A stretch of 64,000 bases of DNA from Escherichia coli. Its GTDB lineage: Bacteria > Pseudomonadota > Gammaproteobacteria > Enterobacterales > Enterobacteriaceae. How positions within the stretch are numbered: position 1 is the first letter of the stretch; each line of letters starts with the position of its first letter. Below are positions 1,859-56,283 of this stretch, one piece after another. Below the pieces are notes generated by a model, which saw nothing but the letters and a program-made list of their open reading frames with translations, made no database searches and was not told the origin of the DNA. The stretch lies in NCBI RefSeq assembly GCF_003018255.1, contig NZ_CP027440.1. The stretch is one strand, 5' to 3'. The position numbers and the translations under genes are program-made.

Positions 1859-4460
1859 AGCGCAGATTAAAAATAAACGCCGTATCTCACCTTTCTGGCT
1901 GCTGCCGTTCATCGCGCTAATGATTGCCGGTTGGCTGATTTGGGATAGTTATCAGGACCGGGGTAATACCGTCACCATCGACTTTATGTCGGCGGATGGT
2001 ATTGTCCCGGGCCGCACCCCTGTTCGTTATCAGGGCGTTGAAGTCGGAACTGTGCAGGATATCAGCCTGAGCGACGATCTTCGTAAGATTGAAGTCAAGG
2101 TCAGCATCAAGTCTGATATGAAAGATGCGCTGCGCGAAGAGACACAGTTCTGGCTGGTGACGCCAAAGGCCTCACTGGCAGGTGTCTCCGGGCTGGATGC
2201 CCTCGTCGGTGGTAACTATATCGGCATGATGCCAGGTAAAGGTAAAGAGCAGGATCACTTTGTCGCACTCGATACCCAACCGAAGTATCGGCTGGATAAT
2301 GGCGATCTGATGATCCACCTGCAAGCCCCCGATCTCGGTTCACTGAACAGCGGTTCATTGGTCTATTTCCGTAAGATCCCGGTGGGTAAAGTCTACGACT
2401 ATGCCATCAATCCCAATAAGCAAGGCGTGGTGATTGATGTCCTGATCGAGCGGCGTTTTACCGACCTGGTGAAAAAAGGTAGCCGTTTCTGGAACGTTTC
2501 CGGCGTTGATGCCAACGTCAGTATCAGTGGCGCGAAGGTGAAACTGGAAAGTCTGGCGGCACTGGTTAACGGTGCGATTGCCTTCGATTCACCTGAAGAG
2601 TCGAAACCTGCCGAGGCGGAAGATACCTTTGGTCTGTATGAAGATCTCGCCCACAGCCAGCGTGGCGTAATAATAAAACTGGAACTGCCGAGTGGGGCCG
2701 GATTAACCGCCGACTCGACGCCGTTAATGTATCAGGGGCTGGAAGTCGGACAGCTGACTAAACTGGATTTAAATCCTGGTGGTAAAGTCACCGGAGAAAT
2801 GACCGTTGATCCCAGCGTCGTTACGCTGTTACGGGAAAATACCCGCATCGAATTACGTAATCCGAAATTATCCCTTAGCGATGCCAATCTCAGCGCCCTG
2901 CTGACCGGAAAAACCTTTGAGTTGGTGCCCGGCGATGGTGAGCCACGCAAAGAGTTCGTTGTTGTGCCAGGCGAAAAAGCCCTGCTACAAGAGCCGGATG
3001 TTCTGACACTGACCCTGACAGCACCAGAAAGTTACGGTATTGATGCTGGTCAGCCGCTCATTCTCCACGGTGTGCAAGTAGGCCAGGTTATTGATCGTAA
3101 ACTCACCAGCAAAGGCGTTACCTTTACCGTCGCCATCGAGCCTCAGCATCGCGAACTGGTAAAAGGCGATAGCAAATTTGTCGTCAACAGCCGTGTCGAC
3201 GTGAAGGTGGGGCTGGATGGCGTTGAGTTTCTCGGTGCCAGCGCCTCAGAATGGATTAACGGCGGGATACGTATTCTGCCGGGCGATAAAGGCGAGATGA
3301 AAGCCAGCTATCCACTGTATGCCAATCTGGAAAAAGCGCTGGAGAACAGCCTTAGCGATTTACCCACCACAACCGTAAGTTTGAGTGCAGAGACGCTGCC
3401 GGATGTGCAGGCAGGATCGGTAGTGCTGTACCGTAAATTTGAAGTTGGTGAAGTTATTACTGTGCGTCCGCGAGCTAACGCGTTTGATATCGATCTGCAT
3501 ATTAAGCCGGAGTATCGCAACCTTCTGACCAGCAACAGCGTGTTCTGGGCAGAAGGTGGGGCGAAAGTTCAGCTAAATGGTAGTGGTCTGACCGTACAGG
3601 CATCCCCGCTCTCCAGAGCATTAAAGGGGGCTATTAGCTTCGATAACCTCAGCGGTGCCAGCGCCAGTCAGCGTAAAGGCGACAAGCGTATTCTGTATGC
3701 TTCCGAAACAGCGGCCCGTGCGGTTGGCGGGCAAATTACGCTTCACGCTTTCGATGCCGGAAAACTGGCGGTCGGGATGCCAATTCGCTATCTCGGTATT
3801 GATATCGGGCAAATCCAGACGCTGGATCTGATTACCGCGCGCAATGAAGTACAGGCAAAGGCGGTACTTTACCCGGAATATGTCCAGACCTTTGCACGCG
3901 GTGGTACACGCTTCTCAGTGGTCACACCGCAAATTTCGGCAGCTGGCGTTGAGCATCTTGATACTATCCTCCAGCCGTATATCAACGTCGAACCAGGCCG
4001 GGGCAATCCTCGGCGCGACTTTGAATTACAAGAGGCTACCATAACTGATTCGCGTTACCTGGATGGCTTAAGCATTATTGTTGAAGCGCCGGAAGCCGGT
4101 TCGTTAGGCATCGGTACGCCTGTGCTGTTCCGTGGTCTGGAAGTCGGTACGGTTACCGGAATGACGCTGGGGACATTGTCAGATCGCGTGATGATTGCGA
4201 TGCGCATCAGTAAACGCTATCAACACCTGGTGCGTAACAATTCCGTCTTCTGGTTGGCATCGGGTTACAGTCTGGACTTTGGTCTGACGGGCGGCGTAGT
4301 GAAAACCGGCACCTTTAACCAGTTTATCCGTGGCGGCATCGCCTTCGCCACGCCTCCGGGTACGCCACTGGCACCGAAAGCCCAGGAAGGCAAGCACTTC
4401 CTGTTGCAGGAAAGTGAACCGAAAGAGTGGCGTGAATGGGGAACTGCGCTTCCCAAATAA
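1827..4460 (+). CDS. letB: Multi-MCE-domain periplasm-spanning tunnel protein LetB
   Basis: 877 aa from [27 protein letters not shown] (ORF track starts 14 codons earlier). Repeated MCE-like modules and an N-terminal TM anchor; overlaps the letA 3' end by 32 nt. Matches YebT. Confidence 0.9.
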
Positions 4461-7384: not shown

Positions 7385-7652
7385 AGTCAGCGAAGGGAAT
7401 GCTTCTGGCTTTTAACAGATAAAAAGAGACCGAACACGATTCCTGTATTCGGTCCAGGGAAATGGCTCTTGGGAGAGAGCCGTGCGCTAAAAGTTGGCAT
7501 TAATGCAGGCTTAGTTGCCTTGCTCTTTAAGAATAGATGACGACGCCAGGTTTTCCAGTTTGCGTGCAAAATGGTCAATAAAAAGCGTGGTGGTCATCAG
7601 CTTAAATGTTAAAAACCGCCCGTTCTGGTGAAAGAACTGAGGCGGTTTTTTA
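7385..7652 (+). ncRNA. ryeA: RyeA (SraC) small RNA, antisense to and fully overlapping SdsR
   Basis: Established locus organisation (RyeA encoded opposite SdsR between pphA and yebY). A plus-strand hairpin plus T-tract at about 7613-7651 can serve as its terminator. The 5' end is not determinable from sequence. Confidence 0.45.
7420..7523 (-). ncRNA. sdsR: SdsR (RyeB) sigmaS-dependent small RNA
   Basis: Minus strand reads GCAAGGCAACTAAGCCTGCATTAATGCCAACTTTTAGCGCACGGCTCTCTCCCAAGAGCCATTTCCCTGGACCGAATACAGGAATCGTGTTCGGTCTCTTTTT, which matches SdsR as I recall it. A CTATTCT -10-like element lies just upstream on that strand and a GGTCTC-T-tract terminator at the 3' end. Confidence 0.7.
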
Positions 7653-17108: not shown

Positions 17109-18920
17109 TTAAAAAGTGATACAGGTTGCGCCCTGTTCGGCACCGGACAGTTTTTCACGCAAGGCGCTGAATAATTCACGTCCTGTTCCCACGCGTGACG
17201 CGCTCAGGTCAGGAATGTGTGGTTCGCGAGCAGCCAGTTCCGCTTCGTCTACCAGCAGCGTCAGTTCGCCTGTCTGTCCATTCACACGAATGATGTCCCC
17301 GTCGCGCACTTTTGCCAGCAGCCCGCCATCGTAGGCTTCTGGTGTTACGTGGATAGCTGACGGCACTTTACCTGAAGCGCCGGAGAGTCGTCCATCAGTA
17401 ACTAACGCAATTTTGAAACACCGGTCCAATAATACACCAAGTGGCGGCATGAGTTTATGTAATTCTGGCATTCCGTTCGCTTTTGGCCCCTGATGACGGA
17501 CAACAACGACACAATCGCGGTCCAGCAAACCCGCTTCAAAGGCCGGCATAACGTCATGCTGGCTTTCAAAAACAACCGCAGGCGCTTCAATCACCTGGTT
17601 CTCTACCGGCACGGCAGAGGTTTTCATAACCGCACGGCCCAGGTTACCGCTTAACACTTTTGTCCCACCATGATGAGAGAAAGGTTGTTCGAAGGAAGCG
17701 ATCACATTGCTGTCGAGTGATTTTTCCGCCCCTTCCCGCCAGTCCAGTTCACCATTATTCAGCCATGGTTCAAGGGTATAACGAGACAGACCAAAGCCTG
17801 CCACCGTATTGACATCTTCATGCAGCAGGCCTGCTTTGAGCAGTTCACGCACCAGAACCGGTACGCCACCTGCCGCCTGGAAGTGGTTAATATCGGCCGG
17901 ACCGTTCGGGTAGAGACGTGCCATCAGCGGTACAACATCAGAAAGGTCAGAGAAGTCATCCCAGTTAATCTGAATACCGGCTGCGCGCGCCATCGCCACC
18001 AGGTGCATGGTGTGGTTAGTGGAACCACCGGTCGCCAGCAGTGCAACGATACCGTTCACCACCACTTTCTCATCGATCATCTTACCGATCGGCATCCATT
18101 CATTACCATTACCGGTCATGCGCGTAACCTGGCGCGCAGCTGCAGCGGTCAAAGCATCGCGCAGCGGAGAATCCGGATGAACAAAAGAAGAGCCTGGCAA
18201 CTGCATCCCCATAAACTCCACCACCATCTGGTTGGTGTTGGCAGTACCGTAGAAAGTACATGTTCCCGGCGCATGATAAGACGCGGCTTCTGACTCCAGT
18301 AGTGCCATGCGGTCCACTTTACCTTCGGCATAAAGCTGGCGAATACGCACTTTTTCTTTATTTGGCAAACCGCTTGCCATCGGTCCAGACGGCACAAACA
18401 CCGCAGGCAAATGCCCAAACGACAGGGCTGCCATCGTCAGACCCGGGACAATCTTGTCGCACACACCGAGGAACAGAGCACCATCAAACATGTTATGGGA
18501 CAGCCCCACCGCCGCAGACATCGCAATCACTTCGCGGCTTAACAGCGACAATTCCATTCCATCCTGCCCCTGGGTGACACCATCACACATCGCCGGAACA
18601 CCGCCTGCAACCTGACCAACCGCATTTGCTTCATGCAGGGCTTTACGAATGATTTCTGGATAGTGTTCATAAGGCTGGTGCGCGGAGAGCATGTCGTTAT
18701 AGGAGGTGATGATGGCGATATTGTTACGCAACATGCTTTTCAAAGAGGCTTTGTCTTCTGGCTGGCAGGCAGCGAAACCGTGTGCCAGGTTACCGCATGC
18801 CAACTGCGAACGATGAACGGTCGAAGTTTTCGCTTGTTCTATCCGGGCGAGGTAAGCAGAGCGAGTCTCGCGCGAACGTTCAATGATTCGATTTGTTACA
18901 CGTAACAATTGTGGATTCAT
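17109..18920 (-). CDS. edd: Phosphogluconate dehydratase (Entner-Doudoroff)
   Basis: 603 aa from [16 protein letters not shown]; IlvD/Edd family; the ORF track has a 22-codon extension. Confidence 0.9.
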
Positions 18921-19114
18921 AAAGGCTCCTGAAATTGAGTTGTCAGAGCAGGATGATTCACAACACGTTTCATTCAGAGGATTCATGACTGAAACGCCTG
19001 TAACCGGAGCTCATAGGGCAAAAACGTTTCAGTCAGTGTAATAAAAAAAGCCTCGTGGGTGAATCCGCACGAGGCCTGAAAGTGTAAAAATTGTTCTACA
19101 ATCTGTGCAAGATC

Positions 19115-19130
19115 ATGTTACCGGTAAAAT
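19115..19130. promoter_or_regulatory. Candidate GntR operator upstream of edd
   Basis: ATGTTACCGGTAAAAT, a near-palindrome resembling the GntR site ATGTTACCGGTAACAT, about 195 bp upstream of the edd start. Confidence 0.4.
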
Positions 19131-19154
19131 AACCATAAAGGATGAGCGCAGATA

Positions 19155-20630
19155 TTACTCAAACTCATTCCAGGAACGACCATCACGGGTAATCATCGCC
19201 ACTGAGGCAACGGGTCCCCAGGTTCCGGCCTGATACGGTTTCGGCGCATCATTGTCCATCGCCCACGCCTCAGTAATGGAGTCTACCCATTTCCAGGCTT
19301 CTTCCACTTCATCGCGACGTACGAACAGTGCCTGAATACCACGCATGGTTTCCAGCAGCAGACGTTCATAGGCATCTGCCAGATGCGTTTGATTAAAGGT
19401 TTCTGAATAGCTCAGATCCAGCTTGGTGATTTGCAGGTTATGTTTATGGTCAAGGCCAGGAACTTTATTTAGTACCTGGATATCCACGCCTTCATCAGGT
19501 TGCAGACGGATAGTCAGTTTATTCTGCGGCAGATCCTGCCACGACTCTTTAAACAGATTCAGTTCAGGTGTTTTGAAATAGACCACGACTTCAGAACATT
19601 TGGTCGGCAGACGTTTACCAGTACGCAGGTAGAATGGCACACCGGCCCAGCGCCAGTTATCAATGTCGACGCGGATCGCCACGAAGGTTTCTGTATTGCT
19701 GCTCTTGTTCGCGCCCTCTTCTTCCAGATATCCCGGCACTTTTTTGCCCTGGGCGAAGCCCGCAGTATATTGCCCGCGTACGGTTTTTTCGCGCACGTTG
19801 GAGCGGTCAATGCGGCGCAGAGACTTCAGTACTTTCACTTTTTCATCGCGGATGCTGTCTGCACTCAGGTCAGACGGCGGAGACATCGCAATCATGCAAA
19901 GAATTTGCAGCAGGTGGTTCTGGATCATGTCGCGCATCTGACCGGCTTTATCAAAATAGCCCCAGCGCCCTTCGATCCCCACTTCTTCTGCCACGGTAAT
20001 CTCAACATGATCAATGGTGCGATTGTCCCAGTTATTCACAAACAGGGAGTTAGCAAAACGCAGCGCCAACAGGTTCAGCACCGTTTCTTTACCAAGATAG
20101 TGGTCGATACGGTAAACCTGGCACTCCTCGAAGTATTCGCCAACCTGATCGTTGATTTCCTGCGAGGTCGCCAGCGACGTCCCCAGCGGTTTCTCCATGA
20201 CTACGCGTGCCGGTTTAGCATTCAGTTTTGCCTCACCAAGCCCTTTGCAAATTGCGCCAAAAGTGCTGGGCGGCATGGCAAAGTAGTTAATGGTGATACG
20301 ATTTTTTTGATCCAGCATCGCGCCGAGACGGCTGAATGCAGCAGTGTCATTGACATCGAGATTACAAAAATCCAGACGTGCACTCAGGGTGTCCCATAAA
20401 CCTTCATCAATGGTTTCTTTCATGAAAGTTTCGAGCGCCTCGCGGACAACTTTGGTATAAGCCGCTTTATCCCAGTCAGCACGCCCTACGCCGATAATCC
20501 GGGTGTCCGGGTTGAGCTGACCGGCTTTTTCCAGTTGATACAGGGAAGGCAGCAATTTACGACGCGCAAGGTCGCCTTTCGCGCCGAAAATGACCAGGTC
20601 ACAGGCCTGGGCTGTTTGCGTTACCGCCAT
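19155..20630 (-). CDS. zwf: Glucose-6-phosphate 1-dehydrogenase
   Basis: 491 aa [33 protein letters not shown] with the RIDHYLGKE active-site motif. Confidence 0.95.
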
Positions 20631-20967
20631 GTCATTCTCCTTAAGTTAACTATCCCGGTACTTAAGCCAGGGTATACTTGTAATTTTCTTACGGTGCACT
20701 GTACTGCTTTTACGAGCTTGCGAAAACTGTAAACGCTTATCCACCCGTGCGATTACGGTAAAAGCGCGCAAAGTGCGGCAAAACTGATAAAAAAATCATC
20801 GTTTTCCATTGGGTAAAAATCTGACACTGATCATGTTATGAAAAAAAATAACAACTTTTTTATCTGCTTTTGTCATTAACACAGCACACAGGCGTAATAT
20901 CTGACAAAACTGCATTTCGATTTCTTTCAGAGCGGAAATCGTCATTACCCGTGAGTCTCTTTACATC

Positions 20968-21837
20968 ATGAATATGCTGGAAAAAATCCAGTCTCAGCTG
21001 GAACATTTGAGCAAATCTGAGCGCAAAGTTGCCGAGGTCATTCTGGCTTCGCCCGATAACGCGATCCATTCGAGTATTGCTGCTCTGGCGCTGGAAGCCA
21101 ATGTTAGCGAACCGACGGTGAATCGTTTCTGTCGCAGCATGGACACTCGCGGTTTTCCTGATTTTAAACTTCATCTGGCACAAAGTCTGGCGAATGGCAC
21201 TCCCTATGTTAATCGCAACGTCAATGAAGATGACAGCGTTGAATCATACACGGGGAAAATATTTGAGTCCGCAATGGCAACGCTCGATCATGTCCGTCAT
21301 TCACTGGATAAATCTGCCATCAACCGCGCCGTCGATTTGCTCACTCAGGCAAAAAAAATCGCCTTTTTCGGATTAGGCTCTTCAGCCGCCGTTGCCCACG
21401 ATGCGATGAATAAGTTCTTTCGTTTTAATGTTCCGGTGGTGTACTCCGATGATATCGTGCTGCAACGCATGAGTTGTATGAATTGTAGCGACGGAGACGT
21501 GGTGGTGCTGATTTCTCACACGGGAAGAACAAAAAATCTGGTCGAGCTGGCGCAGCTGGCACGCGAAAACGACGCCATAGTGATTGCCCTCACCTCTGCG
21601 GGTACCCCGCTCGCCCGGGAAGCAACGCTGGCAATTACCCTCGACGTACCGGAAGATACTGACATTTATATGCCCATGGTTTCTCGACTTGCGCAGCTGA
21701 CCGTGATAGATGTGCTGGCGACAGGATTTACTTTGCGACGCGGTGCAAAATTCAGAGATAACTTGAAGCGGGTCAAGGAAGCGCTGAAGGAATCGCGTTT
21801 TGATAAGCAGCTACTTAATTTAAGTGACGATCGCTAA
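20968..21837 (+). CDS. hexR: RpiR/HexR-family transcriptional regulator (HTH plus SIS domain)
   Basis: 289 aa; divergent from zwf. Matches YebK/HexR. Confidence 0.85.
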
Positions 21838-21964
21838 AAACGACTGTCACTGTCCTAATCTTATACGACATCCGAATGAGATTAATTTATCGCCATCGCG
21901 GCGTTATTTCATTCGGATTTCATGTTCAAGCAACACCTGGTTGTTTCAGTCAACGGAGTATTAC

Positions 21965-23407
21965 ATGTCCAGAAGGCTTCGCAGAACAAAAATCGTTACC
22001 ACGTTAGGCCCAGCAACAGATCGCGATAATAACCTTGAAAAAGTTATCGCAGCGGGTGCCAACGTTGTACGTATGAACTTTTCTCACGGCTCGCCTGAAG
22101 ATCACAAAATGCGCGCGGATAAAGTTCGTGAAATTGCCGCAAAACTGGGGCGTCATGTGGCTATTCTGGGTGACCTCCAGGGGCCCAAAATTCGTGTATC
22201 CACCTTTAAAGAAGGCAAAGTTTTCCTCAATATTGGGGATAAATTCCTGCTCGACGCCAACCTGGGTAAAGGTGAAGGCGACAAAGAAAAAGTCGGTATC
22301 GACTACAAAGGCCTGCCTGCTGACGTCGTGCCTGGTGACATCCTGCTGCTGGACGATGGTCGCGTTCAGTTAAAAGTACTGGAAGTTCAGGGCATGAAAG
22401 TGTTCACCGAAGTGACCGTCGGTGGTCCCCTCTCCAACAATAAAGGTATCAACAAACTTGGCGGCGGTTTGTCGGCTGAAGCGCTGACCGAAAAAGACAA
22501 AGCAGACATTAAGACTGCAGCGTTAATTGGCGTAGATTACCTGGCTGTCTCCTTCCCACGCTGCGGCGAAGATCTGAACTATGCCCGTCGGCTGGCACGC
22601 GATGCAGGATGTGATGCGAAAATTGTTGCCAAGGTTGAACGTGCGGAAGCCGTTTGCAGCCAGGATGCAATGGATGACATCATCCTCGCCTCTGACGTGG
22701 TAATGGTTGCTCGCGGCGACCTCGGTGTGGAAATTGGCGATCCGGAACTGGTCGGCATTCAGAAAGCGTTGATCCGTCGTGCGCGTCAGCTTAACCGCGC
22801 AGTAATCACGGCGACCCAGATGATGGAGTCAATGATTACTAACCCGATGCCGACGCGTGCAGAAGTCATGGACGTAGCAAACGCCGTTCTGGATGGTACT
22901 GACGCTGTGATGCTTTCTGCAGAAACTGCTGCTGGTCAGTATCCGTCAGAAACCGTTGCAGCCATGGCACGCGTTTGCCTGGGCGCGGAAAAAATCCCGA
23001 GCATCAACGTTTCTAAACACCGTCTGGACGTTCAGTTCGACAATGTGGAAGAAGCCATTGCCATGTCAGCAATGTACGCGGCTAACCACCTGAAAGGCGT
23101 TACGGCGATCATCACCATGACCGAATCGGGTCGTACCGCGCTGATGACCTCCCGTATCAGCTCTGGTCTGCCAATTTTCGCCATGTCACGCCATGAACGT
23201 ACGCTGAACCTGACTGCTCTCTATCGCGGCGTTACGCCGGTGCACTTTGATAGCGCTAATGACGGCGTAGCGGCTGCCAGCGAAGCGGTTAATCTGCTGC
23301 GCGATAAAGGTTACTTGATGTCTGGTGACCTGGTGATTGTCACCCAGGGCGACGTGATGAGTACCGTGGGTTCTACTAATACCACGCGTATTTTAACGGT
23401 AGAGTAA
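21965..23407 (+). CDS. pykA: Pyruvate kinase II
   Basis: 480 aa from [20 protein letters not shown]; the ORF track has a 47-codon upstream extension that is unlikely to be real. Confidence 0.9.
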
Positions 23408-23411
23408 GTAC

Positions 23412-23450
23412 GTTGCCGGATGCGGCGAAAACGCCTCATCCGGCCTACAG
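23412..23450. repeat. REP element downstream of pykA
   Basis: GTTGCCGGATGCGGCGAAAACGCCTCATCCGGCCTACAG matches the REP consensus family GCCGGATGCGGCGTAAACGCCTTATCCGGCCTAC. Confidence 0.6.
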
Positions 23451-23538
23451 TTCAATGATAATTCAACAGATTTCGAATCTTCTGAAGCAAACTTGAACTT
23501 ATCACCAGTCGAAGGCCTCTCCTCGCGAGAGGCATTTT

Positions 23539-24510
23539 TTATTTGATGGGATAAAGATCTTTGCGCTTATACGGTTGGATTTCGCCCGGTTTGCGAGTTT
23601 TCAGCAATTTTAATATCCAGGTGTATTGTTCTGGTCGCGGACCAACAAAAATCTCGACTTCTTCATTCATCCGCCGCGCAATCGTATGATCATCCGCCTC
23701 TAACAGATCATCCATCGGTGGGCGCACCTGAATCGTCAAACGATGCGTTTTGCCATCATAAATCGGAAACAGCGGTACAACGCGCGCACGGCACACTTTC
23801 ATCAAACGACCAATCGCAGGCAACGTCGCTTTATAGGTGGCAAAGAAATCAACAAATTCGCTGTGCTCTGGGCCATGATCCTGATCGGGTAAATAATATC
23901 CCCAGTAGCCCTGACGTACCGACTGGATGAATGGTTTAATACCATCATTTCTCGCATGCAGACGACCGCCAAAGCGACGACGCACCGTGTTCCAGACATA
24001 ATCAAAAACCGGGTTGCCCTGATTATGGAACATCGCTGCCATTTTCTGCCCTTGCGAGGCCATCAGCATGGCAGGAATATCGACGGCCCAACCGTGCGGC
24101 ACCAGAAAAATCACTTTCTCGTTATTACGCCGCATCTCTTCGATAATCTCCAGCCCTTGCCAGTCAACGCGCGGCTGAATTTTCTCCGGCCCGCGTATTG
24201 CCAACTCAGCCATCATTGCCATCGCTTGCGGCGCGGTGGCAAACATCTCATCTACAATCGCTTCGCGTTCAGCTTCACTACGTTCTGGAAAGCAGAGCGA
24301 CAGATTGATTAACGCACGACGGCGTGAGCTTTTTCCCAGTCGTCCGGCAAAACGTCCCAGCCGTGCCAGAATGGGATCACGGAACTTTGGCGGCGTTAAA
24401 GCGATACCCGCCATCGCGGCTACGCCCAGCCATGCTCCCCAGTAGCGCGGGTGGCGAAAGGATTTATCAAACTCAGGAATGTATTCGCTATTATTTTTTT
24501 TCGTTTCCAT
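23539..24510 (-). CDS. lpxM: Lipid A myristoyltransferase (late acyltransferase)
   Basis: 323 aa. Matches LpxM/MsbB. Confidence 0.9.
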
Positions 24511-24629
24511 GCTTTTCCAGTTTCGGATAAGGCAAAAATCAATCTGGTGATAGTGTAGCGGCGCAACTTGCCCCGCACCAAATAAAAAAAGCCGGTACTG
24601 ACTGCGTACCGGCTGCGAATGGATGTTAA

Positions 24630-25952
24630 TTAATCAAACCGTAGCTGCGGCACAATCTCTTTGGCCTGCGCCAGGAATTCGCGACGATCGGAGCCGGTCA
24701 GCCCTTCGGTACGCGGCAGTTTTGCCGTCAGCGGGTTTACGGCCTGCTGGTTTATCCATACTTCATAGTGCAGATGCGGCCCGGTTGAACGTCCGGTATT
24801 ACCGGAAAGCGCGATACGGTCGCCACGTTTCACCTTCTGTCCCGGTTTCACCAGGATCTTGCGCAAGTGCATATAACGCGTGGTGTAGCTGCGACCATGA
24901 CGAATAGCCACATAATAACCTGCTGCGCCACTGCGTTTGGCAACCACCACTTCACCGTCACCCACTGAAAGCACTGGCGTACCTTGTGGCATGGCAAAAT
25001 CAACACCTCTGTGTGGCGCAACGCGACCGGTCACCGGATTAGTACGACGCGGGTTAAAGTTAGATGAGATACGGAACTGTTTCGCCGTCGGGAATCGCAA
25101 GAATCCTTTCGCCAGACCAGTACCGTTACGATCGTAGAATTTGCCATCTTCAGCGCGGATTGCGTAATAATCTTTACCTTCTGAACGCAAACGTACGCCC
25201 AGCAGCTGGCTTTGCTCACGTTTACCATCAAGCATTTCTCGTGACATTAACACCGCAAATTCATCGCCTTTTTTCAGTTTGCGGAAATCCATTTGCCACT
25301 GCATGGCTTTAATCACTGCGCTCACTTCGGCGCTGGTTAAACCGGCGTTTCTGGCGCTGGCAACAAAGCTTCCCCCGACGGTACCTTTCAGCAGATTGTT
25401 GACCCACTCTCCTTGCTGCATTTCGCTGGTCATTTTAAAACCGTTAGCGGCAGTACGGTCATAGGTTCGGGTTTCACGACGAGACACTTCCCAGGTGAGG
25501 CGCTGCAGTTCGCCGTCCGCGGTTAATGTCCAGGAGAGTTGTTGACCGATTTTCAGGTTACGCAATTCTTTGTCGGCAGCAGCCAGTTGGGTGATATCAC
25601 CCATATCAATACCATACTGATTGAGAATGCTGCTTAGCGTATCGCCAGTGGAAACAACATATTCATGCACGCCCGCTTCACCGGCGATTTTGTCATCCAG
25701 TTCATCCTGGGGAATGGCTTCATCTTCTTGTGCAGCTTGATCAATCGGCTCACTGGCTTCAGGTAAGAGCGAACGAATTTCGTTCTGTTCCAGCTCAATG
25801 GTTTTGACAATTGGCGTGGCATCGCGGTGATAAACATAGGGCCGCCAGACAGCGACGGCCAGAGTAAGAACGGTGAGCGACCCTAACATAACGCGGTGTG
25901 GTCGCGGTAAATTATTAAACGCCAGGGCGACAGAGCGGGCTATCTGTTGCAC
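24630..25952 (-). CDS. mepM: Murein DD-endopeptidase, LysM plus M23 peptidase
   Basis: 440 aa with LysM segment and C-terminal M23 zinc-peptidase motifs (HRGVDFA...HLHYEV). Matches YebA/MepM. Confidence 0.9.
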
Positions 25953-25967
25953 GTAATCACTTCCTCA

Positions 25968-26900
25968 TTAATCTCCTTTCAGGCAGCTCGCATACTGGTT
26001 GGCTAATTGATTCAGGAATTCTGAATAGCTTGTTTTACCCAGTTTGATATTCGTCCCCAGGGGATCCAACGTTCCCATACGAACGGATGTCCCTCGTGCG
26101 ACGCTCTCAACGACCGCTGGCCTGAACTGTGGCTCAGCAAAAACGCAGGTTGCTTTTTGCTCAACCAACTGTGTTCTTATTTCATGTAAACGCTGCGCGC
26201 CAGGTTGAATCTCAGGGTTAACGGTAAAATGACCAAGCGGTGTCAGTCCGAACTGTTTTTCGAAGTAGCCGTAAGCATCGTGAAAAACGAAATAACCTTT
26301 CCCCTTGAGCGGCGCGAGCTCGTTACCAACCTGCGTTTCGGTTGAGGCTAATTGTGCCTCAAAATCCTTCAGGTTGGCGTCAAGTTTGGCTCGACTTTGC
26401 GGCATAAGTTCCACTAATTTTCCATGGATTGCAACCGCTGTAGCCCGCGCTATCTCTGGGGAAAGCCAAAGATGCATGTTGAAATCGCCGTGATGGTGAT
26501 CTTCGTCACTTTTTTCCGCGTGGTCGTGATCATCATCATCGTCGTGAATACTTTTCATCAGCAGCGGTTTCACATCTTCTAGCTGCGCAATCGTTACCTG
26601 TTTCGCTTCTGGTAATTTACTTACCGGTTTTTGCATGAACGCTTCCATCTCCGGGCCAACCCAAACGACTAAGTCCGCGTTCTGTAAGCGTTTTACATCC
26701 GATGGACGCAGTGAATAATCATGTTCTGAAGCGCCGTCAGGCAGTAAAACCTGCGTTTCTGTTACCCCATCAGCAATGGCAGAAGCGATGAACCCAACGG
26801 GTTTAAGCGAAGCGACAACGGCGGCATCTGCGGCCTGTGTTGCACCGCCCCAGAGAGCGGCGGATAATGCTGCGAAAAGAAGCGTTTTTTTATGTAACAT
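25968..26900 (-). CDS. znuA: Periplasmic zinc-binding protein of ZnuABC
   Basis: 310 aa from [23 protein letters not shown] (signal peptide) with the His/Asp/Glu-rich loop ([20 protein letters not shown]); the ORF track has a 42-codon extension. Confidence 0.9.
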
Positions 26901-26934
26901 AATGCGACCAATCATCGTAATGAATATGAGAACT

Positions 26935-26953
26935 GTGATATTATAACATTTCA
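26935..26953. promoter_or_regulatory. Zur box in the divergent znuA / znuCB promoter region
   Basis: TGTGATATTATAACATTTC, reverse complement GAAATGTTATAATATCACA, a Zur-type palindrome between znuA (start 26900) and znuC (start 26979). Confidence 0.65.
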
Positions 26954-26978
26954 TGACTACTGCAAGACTAAAATTAAC

Positions 26979-27734
26979 ATGACAAGTCTGGTTTCCCTGG
27001 AAAATGTCTCGGTTTCTTTTGGCCAACGCCGCGTCCTCTCTGATGTGTCGCTGGAACTTAAACCTGGAAAAATTTTGACTTTACTTGGGCCAAACGGCGC
27101 AGGTAAGTCGACACTGGTACGGGTAGTGCTCGGGCTGGTAACACCCGATGAAGGGGTTATCAAGCGCAACGGAAAACTGCGCATCGGCTATGTACCGCAG
27201 AAGCTGTATCTCGACACCACGTTGCCACTGACCGTAAACCGTTTTTTACGCTTACGCCCTGGCACACATAAAGAAGATATTTTGCCTGCACTGAAACGTG
27301 TCCAGGCCGGGCATCTGATTAACGCACCGATGCAAAAGCTCTCGGGTGGCGAAACGCAGCGTGTACTGTTAGCGCGAGCATTGTTAAATCGACCGCAATT
27401 ATTAGTGCTGGATGAACCCACTCAGGGCGTGGATGTGAATGGTCAGGTGGCGTTATATGACCTTATTGACCAACTGCGTCACGAACTGGATTGTGGCGTT
27501 TTAATGGTATCTCACGATCTGCATCTGGTAATGGCAAAAACCGATGAAGTGCTTTGCCTGAATCACCACATTTGTTGTTCCGGTACACCGGAAGTTGTTT
27601 CCCTGCATCCGGAGTTTATTTCTATGTTTGGTCCTCGTGGTGCTGAACAACTGGGTATCTATCGCCATCATCATAATCATCGTCACGATTTACAGGGACG
27701 AATTGTTTTGCGTCGGGGAAATGATCGCTCATGA
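26979..27734 (+). CDS. znuC: Zinc ABC transporter ATPase
   Basis: 251 aa with Walker A (GPNGAGKST) and ABC signature (LSGGETQR). Confidence 0.9.
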
Positions 27735-28516
27735 TTGAATTATTATTTCCCGGTTGGTTAGCCGGGATCATGCTCGCCTGTGCCGCGGGTCCGCTGGGTT
27801 CGTTTGTGGTCTGGCGTCGTATGTCTTATTTCGGTGATACGCTGGCTCATGCCTCATTACTTGGCGTCGCGTTTGGTTTGTTGCTGGACGTGAATCCATT
27901 CTATGCGGTGATTGCAGTTACGCTGTTGTTGGCGGGCGGTCTGGTATGGCTGGAGAAGCGCCCACAGCTGGCGATCGACACATTATTAGGGATTATGGCG
28001 CACAGTGCCCTGTCGCTGGGCCTGGTGGTCGTTAGTCTGATGTCTAACATTCGTGTTGATTTGATGGCTTATCTGTTCGGTGATTTGCTGGCAGTGACGC
28101 CAGAAGATCTCATCTCTATTGCGATTGGCGTGGTCATCGTGTTGGCGATTCTGTTCTGGCAATGGCGCAATTTGCTGTCAATGACGATTAGCCCGGATCT
28201 GGCGTTTGTTGATGGTGTGAAATTACAGCGCGTGAAATTGTTGTTGATGCTGGTGACAGCATTGACAATTGGTGTAGCGATGAAATTTGTCGGCGCGTTG
28301 ATTATTACTTCGCTGCTGATTATTCCTGCAGCTACAGCGCGTCGCTTTGCCCGCACGCCGGAACAGATGGCCGGTGTCGCTGTTTTGGTGGGAATGGTGG
28401 CAGTAACTGGCGGTTTAACCTTTTCCGCATTTTACGATACGCCGGCGGGTCCGTCGGTAGTGCTATGTGCGGCACTGTTATTTATTATCAGTATGATGAA
28501 AAAGCAGGCCAGCTAA
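27731..28516 (+). CDS. znuB: Zinc ABC transporter permease
   Basis: 261 aa polytopic membrane protein; 4-nt overlap with znuC. Confidence 0.9.
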
Positions 28517-28535
28517 TCTGTCGCTGAACACATTT

Positions 28536-29677
<1,142 letters not shown>

Positions 29678-38618: not shown

Positions 38619-38721
38619 ACTGCCGGATGCGGCGTGAACGCCTTATCCGGCCTACAAAACCTTGCTAATTCAATATATTGCAGGGACTATGTAGGCCTTA
38701 TAAGCATAGCGCATCAGGCAG
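38619..38721. repeat. REP pair (BIME) between cmoB and torZ
   Basis: TGCCGGATGCGGCGTGAACGCCTTATCCGGCCTAC, then an inverted copy (GTAGGCCTTATAAGCATAGCGCATCAGGCA); followed by a GC hairpin plus T-tract at about 38731-38758. Confidence 0.6.
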
Positions 38722-42632: not shown

Positions 42633-43468
<836 letters not shown>

Positions 43469-56170: not shown

Positions 56171-56197
56171 TTATCGGCAAGGAAGGGGGAAACTTTA
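56171..56197 (-). promoter_or_regulatory. sigma28 (FliA) class 3 promoter of the tar-tap-cheRBYZ operon
   Basis: Minus strand TAAAGTTT, 11-nt spacer (cccccttcctt), GCCGATAA; a perfect match to the sigma28 consensus about 30 nt upstream of the tar start. Confidence 0.7.
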
Positions 56198-56228
56198 TTG
56201 CTGATGCCACCCGCCGCGAAACTGAAAT

Positions 56229-56257
56229 AAAAAACCCGATGCGCAGATCATCGGGTT
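56229..56257 (-). terminator. Intrinsic terminator downstream of cheW
   Basis: Minus strand AACCCGATGATCTGCGCATCGGGTTTTTT. Confidence 0.55.
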
Positions 56258-56283
56258 CATTGCAATTGAGGAAATCGGGAGAA

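Follow-up and report, generated by a model that had tools for sequence, protein, structure and literature searches.

The 78 bp that separate the divergent zinc-uptake genes znuA and znuCB of Escherichia coli raise a question in three parts: whether a short, imperfectly symmetrical sequence noticed there in raw DNA is the operator of the zinc-responsive repressor Zur, whether one such site can serve both promoters, and how far the allele carried here allows conclusions about zinc regulation. The window, that is, the whole 64-kb stretch of DNA that was analyzed, is E. coli DNA and has the gene order lpxM-mepM-znuA / znuC-znuB / ruvB-ruvA in common with K-12. Its closest relative in the genome collection is strain JNE23-011, with 99.4-99.8% identity and exact identity from 18,901 to 27,583; the zur gene itself is located outside the window. 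The following features frame the locus:

25968..26900, minus strand: znuA CDS, periplasmic zinc-binding protein, 310 aa (ORF translation)
26901..26978, unstranded: divergent znuA/znuCB spacer, bidirectional promoter region, 78 bp as delimited by the two start codons
26979..27734, plus strand: znuC CDS, ABC ATPase, 251 aa
27731..28516, plus strand: znuB CDS, permease, 261 aa

The start of znuB overlaps the stop of znuC by 4 bp, so that znuC and znuB form one operon. The same ends of the znuA and znuC coding sequences are annotated in the near-identical strain JNE23-011 and in K-12, with the znuA ATG at 26900..26898 on the minus strand and the znuC ATG at 26979-26981 on the plus strand; the spacer length of 78 bp given in the original prediction is thus correct. 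At its edges the spacer reads ttatgtaacat followed by AATGCGACC on the znuA side and AAAATTAAC followed by atgacaagt on the znuC side. A spacer of the same length is present in K-12, BL21, and Citrobacter, and 57 of 80 other Enterobacterales loci have spacers of 74-86 bp. Moreover, a 278-bp query around the spacer found matches of at least 95% identity in 5,425 of 5,426 complete E. coli genomes, always accompanied by znuA and znuC annotation. E. coli NIPH17_0036 (NZ_AP024561.1, about 3040-3050) lacks approximately 153 bp that correspond to window positions of about 26848-27001; the gap takes away the start of znuA, the whole spacer with the Zur box, and the start of znuC, and PGAP annotates overlapping znuA and znuC CDSs in this genome; either the strain is naturally devoid of a znu promoter or the genome was misassembled.

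Several other features of the window were recorded in passing. Compared with JNE23-011, it shows approximately 35 clustered differences at 27808-28643, in znuB and just downstream; given the exact identity up to 27,583, this clustering suggests a putative recombination boundary inside the znuCB operon. At the aspS-nudB junction (32935/32936), the window is without approximately 125 bp that are seen in JNE23-011 and K-12, such that a single nucleotide separates the aspS stop from a new nudB ATG and NudB starts with MAYKRP... as against MKDKVYKRP...; the short junction is found also in at least some other genomes, e.g., GN03507, and K-12-type genomes have the longer form. The tap gene is intact in the window and a pseudogene in JNE23-011. 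Matches above the Rfam gathering threshold, at 7417-7561, 38656-38698, 42634-42941, and 56187-56264, comprise SraC/RyeA (plus strand) overlapping SdsR/RyeB (minus strand), ES036, MicL (minus strand), and C0465, all known E. coli sRNAs and none of them near the znu spacer.

With respect to the symmetry of the site, the original prediction had singled out as a palindrome the 19-mer TGTGATATTATAACATTTC, which is a real substring of the window with one occurrence, at 26934-26952 on the plus strand. As a palindrome it does not stand, given that just 2 of its 19 positions agree with its reverse complement: it is cut asymmetrically and is not self-complementary. When symmetry was computed at every possible axis in the spacer, the true units turned out to be a 23-mer, with arms GAACTGTGATA-T-TATAACATTTC around the best axis, and a 20-mer, with halves TGTGATATTA and TAACATTTCA around the second-best axis, at which 7 of 10 pairs are complementary:

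26930..26952, unstranded: 23-bp gamma-proteobacterial Zur box GAACTGTGATATTATAACATTTC, axis 26941, 9 of 11 arm pairs complementary, 2 mismatches to the consensus GAAATGTTATANTATAACATTTC
26934..26953, unstranded: structure-based 20-bp E. coli Zur box TGTGATATTATAACATTTCA, pseudo-dyad 26943.5, 20/20 against the pattern TGWNAYRWTATAWYRTNWCA

Owing to the imperfect arms, a repeat search picked up no more than a 9-nt palindromic core. Measured from the center of the 23-mer, the distance is 41 bp to the znuA ATG and 38 bp to the znuC ATG, and the two axes fall within 1.5-4 bp of the spacer midpoint, 26939.5, so that the description of the site as centered is approximately right. The gamma-proteobacterial Zur box GAAATGTTATA-N-TATAACATTTC (quoted in PMC4219657) agrees with the window at 20 of the 22 specified positions, the left arm being degenerate in the window (GAACTGTGATA as against GAAATGTTATA).

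Matches of this quality are not expected by chance in DNA of this composition. At up to 3 mismatches, the 23-bp consensus has 26930-26952 as its sole match in the 64 kb and none in 100 dinucleotide-preserving shuffles, and at up to 1 mismatch the 20-mer IUPAC pattern also has a sole match in the window, with 0.02 expected; the skeleton RNNNYRNNRYNNYRNNNY by itself, matching 244 times per strand, is too loose to be informative. For a non-circular scan, we built a position weight matrix (PWM) only from the K-12 zinT, ykgM, and pliG operators, the sequences of which agree with the EMSA probes of PMC4219657. This znu-free matrix, which implements a check suggested along with the original prediction and bears it out, places the znu site at rank 1 of approximately 128,000 positions, with 23.2 and 23.1 bits on the two strands (z = 6.0), compared to a maximum of 16.8 bits in 50 shuffles. 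The znu site occupies third place as well, displaced by 5 bp to the left (26929-26948, AGAACTGTGATATTATAACA, 15.5 bits), in a register that fits the 5-bp offset between the overlapping dimer sites described below.

The second-best match of the matrix, at 17.7 bits and hence above the shuffle maximum, is a palindrome in the zwf-hexR spacer, TGTTATGAAAAAAAATAACA, at 20834-20853. Without the central TATA on which Zur depends, it is probably the target of another regulator of zwf/hexR.

Fur-family boxes in general are similar AT-rich inverted repeats, so an operator for Fur (iron) or for another Fur-family paralog could in principle look much like the site in the znu spacer. However, a search with the 19-bp Fur box GATAATGATAATCATTATC at up to 3 mismatches returned 0 matches in the window, and the znu site has the central TATA, contacted by Tyr45, that is specific to Zur and absent from the Fur consensus (PMC4219657). 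We consider an assignment to Fur or to another paralog scarcely credible.

The assignment to Zur can be taken to the level of individual bases given that E. coli Zur was crystallized on a 31-bp duplex of the znuABC operator as a (Zur2)2-DNA complex (pdb 4mtd; Gilston et al. 2014, PMC4219657), the oligonucleotide being 31mer2bpOH-f, AGAAGTGTGATATTATAACATTTCATGACTA(TG), of Table S2 (PMC4219657). The mutagenic primers znu11TA and znu12AT of the same study fix the numbering, such that crystal base n is window position 26928+n. In this frame, the sole mismatch between the window and the crystal duplex is C for G at base 5, that is, 26933; over the whole spacer, only one more SNP separates the window from K-12, C for A at 26913, which is outside the operator. 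Each Zur dimer binds a motif RNNNYxxxRNNNY, and two such 13-bp motifs offset by 5 bp overlap to give RNNNYRNNRYNNYRNNNY (PMC4219657). Translated to the window by motif arithmetic, the expected arrangement is as follows:

26929..26959, unstranded: equivalent of the 31-bp K-12 znuABC crystal duplex, 30/31 identical
26935..26947, unstranded: predicted site of one Zur dimer, RNNNYxxxRNNNY, bases 7-19, dyad at base 13 (26941)
26940..26952, unstranded: predicted site of the second Zur dimer, RNNNYxxxRNNNY, bases 12-24, dyad at base 18 (26946)

The specified bases of both sites are all in place, namely G7, T11, A15, and C19 in the first and A12, T16, A20, and C24 in the second. Accordingly, crystal bases 7, 11, 12, 15, 16, 19, 20, and 24 are all as in K-12, including the hydrogen-bonded bases that were mutated in the structural study (11, 12, 15, 16, 19, and 20; PMC4219657), and the central TATA is present. 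The structure-derived pattern TGWNAYRWTATAWYRTNWCA (PMC4219657) is matched in full at 26934-26953. The two-fold axis of the complex runs between bases 15 and 16 (26943.5), where A15 and A16' make the most important contacts (PMC4219657), and is thus located 2.5 bp to the right of the axis of the gamma-proteobacterial box at 26941; the overlap of offset dimer sites would account for this distance between the palindrome axis and the crystallographic pseudo-dyad. The locus is the ortholog of the K-12 PznuABC operator, with the same 78-bp spacer, an identical structure-based box, and all the hydrogen-bonded bases kept.

These correspondences bear on the claim that the site is single. It is the sole match at the thresholds used, as claimed; nevertheless, two Zur dimers share it, binding cooperatively to half-sites that overlap. 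Binding of the two dimers to znu proceeds with a Kd-app of 8.2e-18 M^2 and a Hill coefficient of at least 2, without a single-dimer intermediate (PMC4219657). An analogous overlapping-dimer model, with two dimers on opposite faces of the DNA at overlapping inverted repeats, has been put forward for the Fur family, as in the Zur operator. The znu operator binds Zur at least 100-fold more weakly than the zinT and ykgM operators, and in vivo repression is approximately 6.6-fold for znuC compared to 560-980-fold at ykgM and zinT (PMC4219657). The operators of zinT, ykgM/L31p, and pliG have the core TGT.AT..TATAACA in common with the znu site, which is set apart from them by governing two divergent promoters.

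Comparison with other znu loci was the second check suggested with the original prediction. A scan with ZnuC, one genome per species, collected 80 loci with 60-98% protein identity, from Escherichia to Gilliamella (Enterobacterales/Orbales); znuA is divergent and upstream of znuC in all 80, and a Zur box was found in all 80 as well. The best 23-mer in each spacer scores 13-21 of 22 and the second-best 10-17, and the center of the box is 35-40 bp from the znuC ATG in 73 loci. Among 79 distinct sequences, positions 26934-26950 are near-invariant (T-G-T-k-A-T-A-T-T-A-T-A-A-C-A-T-T, roughly 1.1-2 bits per column), flanked by low-information columns, and family-wide symmetry is higher around the axis at 26941 (0.80) than around 26943.5 (0.64). 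The column alignment of these 79 sequences was anchored on the consensus; when the analysis was repeated unanchored with MAFFT on 58 spacers of 70-86 bp, 26934-26950 was again the dominant conserved block.

The unanchored alignment also revealed smaller conserved blocks outside the box, at 26961-26965 (TGCAA, 1.3-2.0 bits per column), 26972-26974, and 26913-26918. These could be 5'-UTR or ribosome-binding sequence, or else the counterpart of the second Zur footprint of Yersinia pestis, where the 73-bp znu spacer, compared to 78 bp in E. coli, shows two separate DNase footprints (PMC2706843). Hence an additional regulatory input in the spacer, for example another Zur site of lower strength or a site for an activator, has to be weighed, all the more as SoxS has been reported to raise znuACB expression. 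Against such an input, the only other Zur-like match in the spacer is the 5-bp-shifted register, and the conserved blocks may be accounted for by the 5'-UTR or by ribosome binding. We regard an additional input as unlikely, although it is the alternative that we take most seriously. A SoxS site (marbox) as the second operator was rejected: SoxS is reported to act indirectly and to produce no gel shift with the promoter.

The preferred reading, a Zur operator bound by two dimers, leads to the question of how one site could control transcription in both directions. A search for the pattern TGnTAnnnT identified one candidate promoter element for each direction:

26936..26944, plus strand: predicted extended -10 element of znuCB, TGATATTAT
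26940..26948, minus strand: predicted extended -10 element of znuA, TGTTATAAT, with a consensus hexamer

The two motifs lie within the box and share essentially the same hexamer positions, and columns 26940-26948 are nearly invariant in the 79 distinct orthologous sequences. From the placement of these elements, transcription would be predicted to start near 26951 for znuC and near 26933-26934 for znuA. A generic scan for sigma-70 promoters and terminators returned nothing in 26800-27080; it needs a match to the -35 element and so is blind to extended -10 promoters. Two published observations are in line with this placement. An extended -10 RNA polymerase site is marked inside the crystallized duplex (Fig. 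1B of PMC4219657), and primer extension and footprinting in Y. pestis revealed an overlap between the Zur site and the -10 elements of both znu promoters (PMC2706843). Both E. coli znu promoters are active in vivo, as relayed in PMC2611976. According to the same source, run-off assays show that zinc-loaded Zur keeps RNA polymerase off the znuC promoter. The Y. pestis znuA/znuCB promoter is a close parallel with respect to organization, having the same divergent layout, a short spacer, and repression verified with lacZ (PMC2706843).

The coincidence of operator and promoters opens another reading, namely, that the palindrome is conserved only for the sake of two overlapping divergent -10 elements, with no need for a repressor. 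The predicted extended -10 elements of both directions are indeed within the conserved core, where selection on a promoter and selection on an operator are inseparable from sequence alone. Conservation, however, reaches past the -10 hexamers into the TGT and ACAT arms (26934-26936 and 26947-26949), the operators of unrelated genes (zinT, ykgM, and pliG) predict the znu site by PWM, and direct binding of Zur has been demonstrated in the literature on essentially the same DNA. The probability that promoter function alone maintains the palindrome appears negligible.

The proposed mechanism of the Zur operator, then, is the following. With enough zinc in the cytosol, the Fur-family repressor Zur would be loaded with zinc and bind the operator with two dimers, placed on opposite sides of the helix, at the RNNNYxxxRNNNY sites at approximately 26935-26947 and 26940-26952 with their 5-bp offset, the cooperativity being provided by Asp49-Arg52 salt bridges. 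Since both predicted -10 elements are in the AT-rich core bound by Zur, the bound repressor should occlude both promoters and shut RNA polymerase out in either direction. When zinc falls, Zur would come off the DNA and the ZnuABC importer would be made. The model can be summarized as (Zur2)2 occlusion of two back-to-back promoters by an operator that would deliberately not be the tightest in the regulon. Zinc-responsive co-repression of both transcripts by one operator, the central tenet of the original prediction, is supported for K-12 by the crystal structure, EMSA, footprinting, and run-off transcription, as reported in PMC4219657, PMC2611976, and PMC2706843. In the assignment of the operator, sequence identity, statistical significance, and conservation were computed here, and binding, stoichiometry, and repression come from the literature on K-12 DNA, which is identical at 30 of 31 positions. 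We are highly confident that what the bidirectional znuA/znuCB promoter carries at this site is its canonical E. coli Zur operator.

The remaining part of the question concerns the one position at which the window departs from the crystallized duplex:

26933, unstranded: C as the minority allele, against G in K-12 and BL21; base 5 of the crystal duplex and fourth position of the 23-mer, approximately +1 of the predicted znuA transcript

The allele census was performed with SNP-centered 35-mers, for which megablast seeds only where the SNP matches, and gave G in 5,042, C in 133, and T in 11 E. coli genomes; C is thus present in approximately 2.5% of complete genomes, and the A allele, as in E. 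albertii, was found in none of the E. coli genomes of the census. The carriers of C include the species type strain, ATCC 11775, and NU14; several, going by their strain names, we take to be extraintestinal pathogens. The exact 78-bp spacer of the window occurs in only 2 of 5,422 genomes (JNE23-011 and JNE112863), compared to 4,183 with the BL21-type spacer. This rarity stems from the combination of alleles in the haplotype, the type strain, for instance, having also A at 26955; near-uniqueness of the spacer was dropped as a point of interest because the C allele itself is carried by 133 genomes. Other variants in the E. coli genomes sampled are located at 26922, 26925, 26926, 26929, and 26930, all in the left flank, and at 26953, where the 20-mer ends; the conserved core, 26934-26950, contained none.

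It is conceivable that the operator is real but quantitatively altered, that is, that C26933 changes the affinity for Zur or the strength of the znuA promoter and confers a lineage-specific set-point. The position is inside the crystallized and footprinted duplex and inside the 23-bp box, and also falls within the alternative PWM register at 26929-26948; it is 7 nt downstream of the predicted znuA -10 element; C is nearly absent there across genera, the column of 79 distinct sequences consisting of A in 36, G in 24, T in 18, and C in one, the window itself; and in an operator that is already weak, small changes could matter. On the other side, base 5 belongs neither to the 20-bp box nor to the hydrogen-bonded bases, the column carries little information (0.4 bits) and has three alleles within E. 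coli, the other sampled E. coli variants are also in the left flank, with the one further exception at 26953, and the allele is shared with the type strain and NU14. Furthermore, the validated pliG operator, GAACTGTTATAATATAACA, carries the same C and begins with GAACTG like the window allele. A quantitatively altered operator is thus improbable, and the evidence points to C26933 as a tolerated flank polymorphism that would be neutral. Backbone contacts, or the location approximately 7 nt downstream of the predicted znuA -10 element, are possible routes by which an effect could arise; that C26933 subtly retunes Zur occupancy or znuA initiation, resulting in a different zinc-uptake set-point in the carrier lineages, seems to us quite improbable. 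It follows that the original prediction went too far in one respect: the contacted core is intact, but normal zinc regulation cannot be read off the window alone because zur lies elsewhere and a minority allele is present in the operator flank.

The operator is already known and is among the best-characterized metal-responsive operators of bacteria, with a crystal structure on essentially the same DNA. The value of the present case is that of a positive control, in which a real regulatory site was recognized from raw sequence; what is added is a map, in window coordinates, of the dimer sites, the dyads, and the predicted overlapping -10 elements. The natural variation of the site in E. coli, including C26933, is confined to the uncontacted left flank, save for the variant at 26953. 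A change of set-point through C26933 in pathogenic lineages, should it occur, would hold modest interest for nutritional immunity and for growth under zinc limitation by the host.
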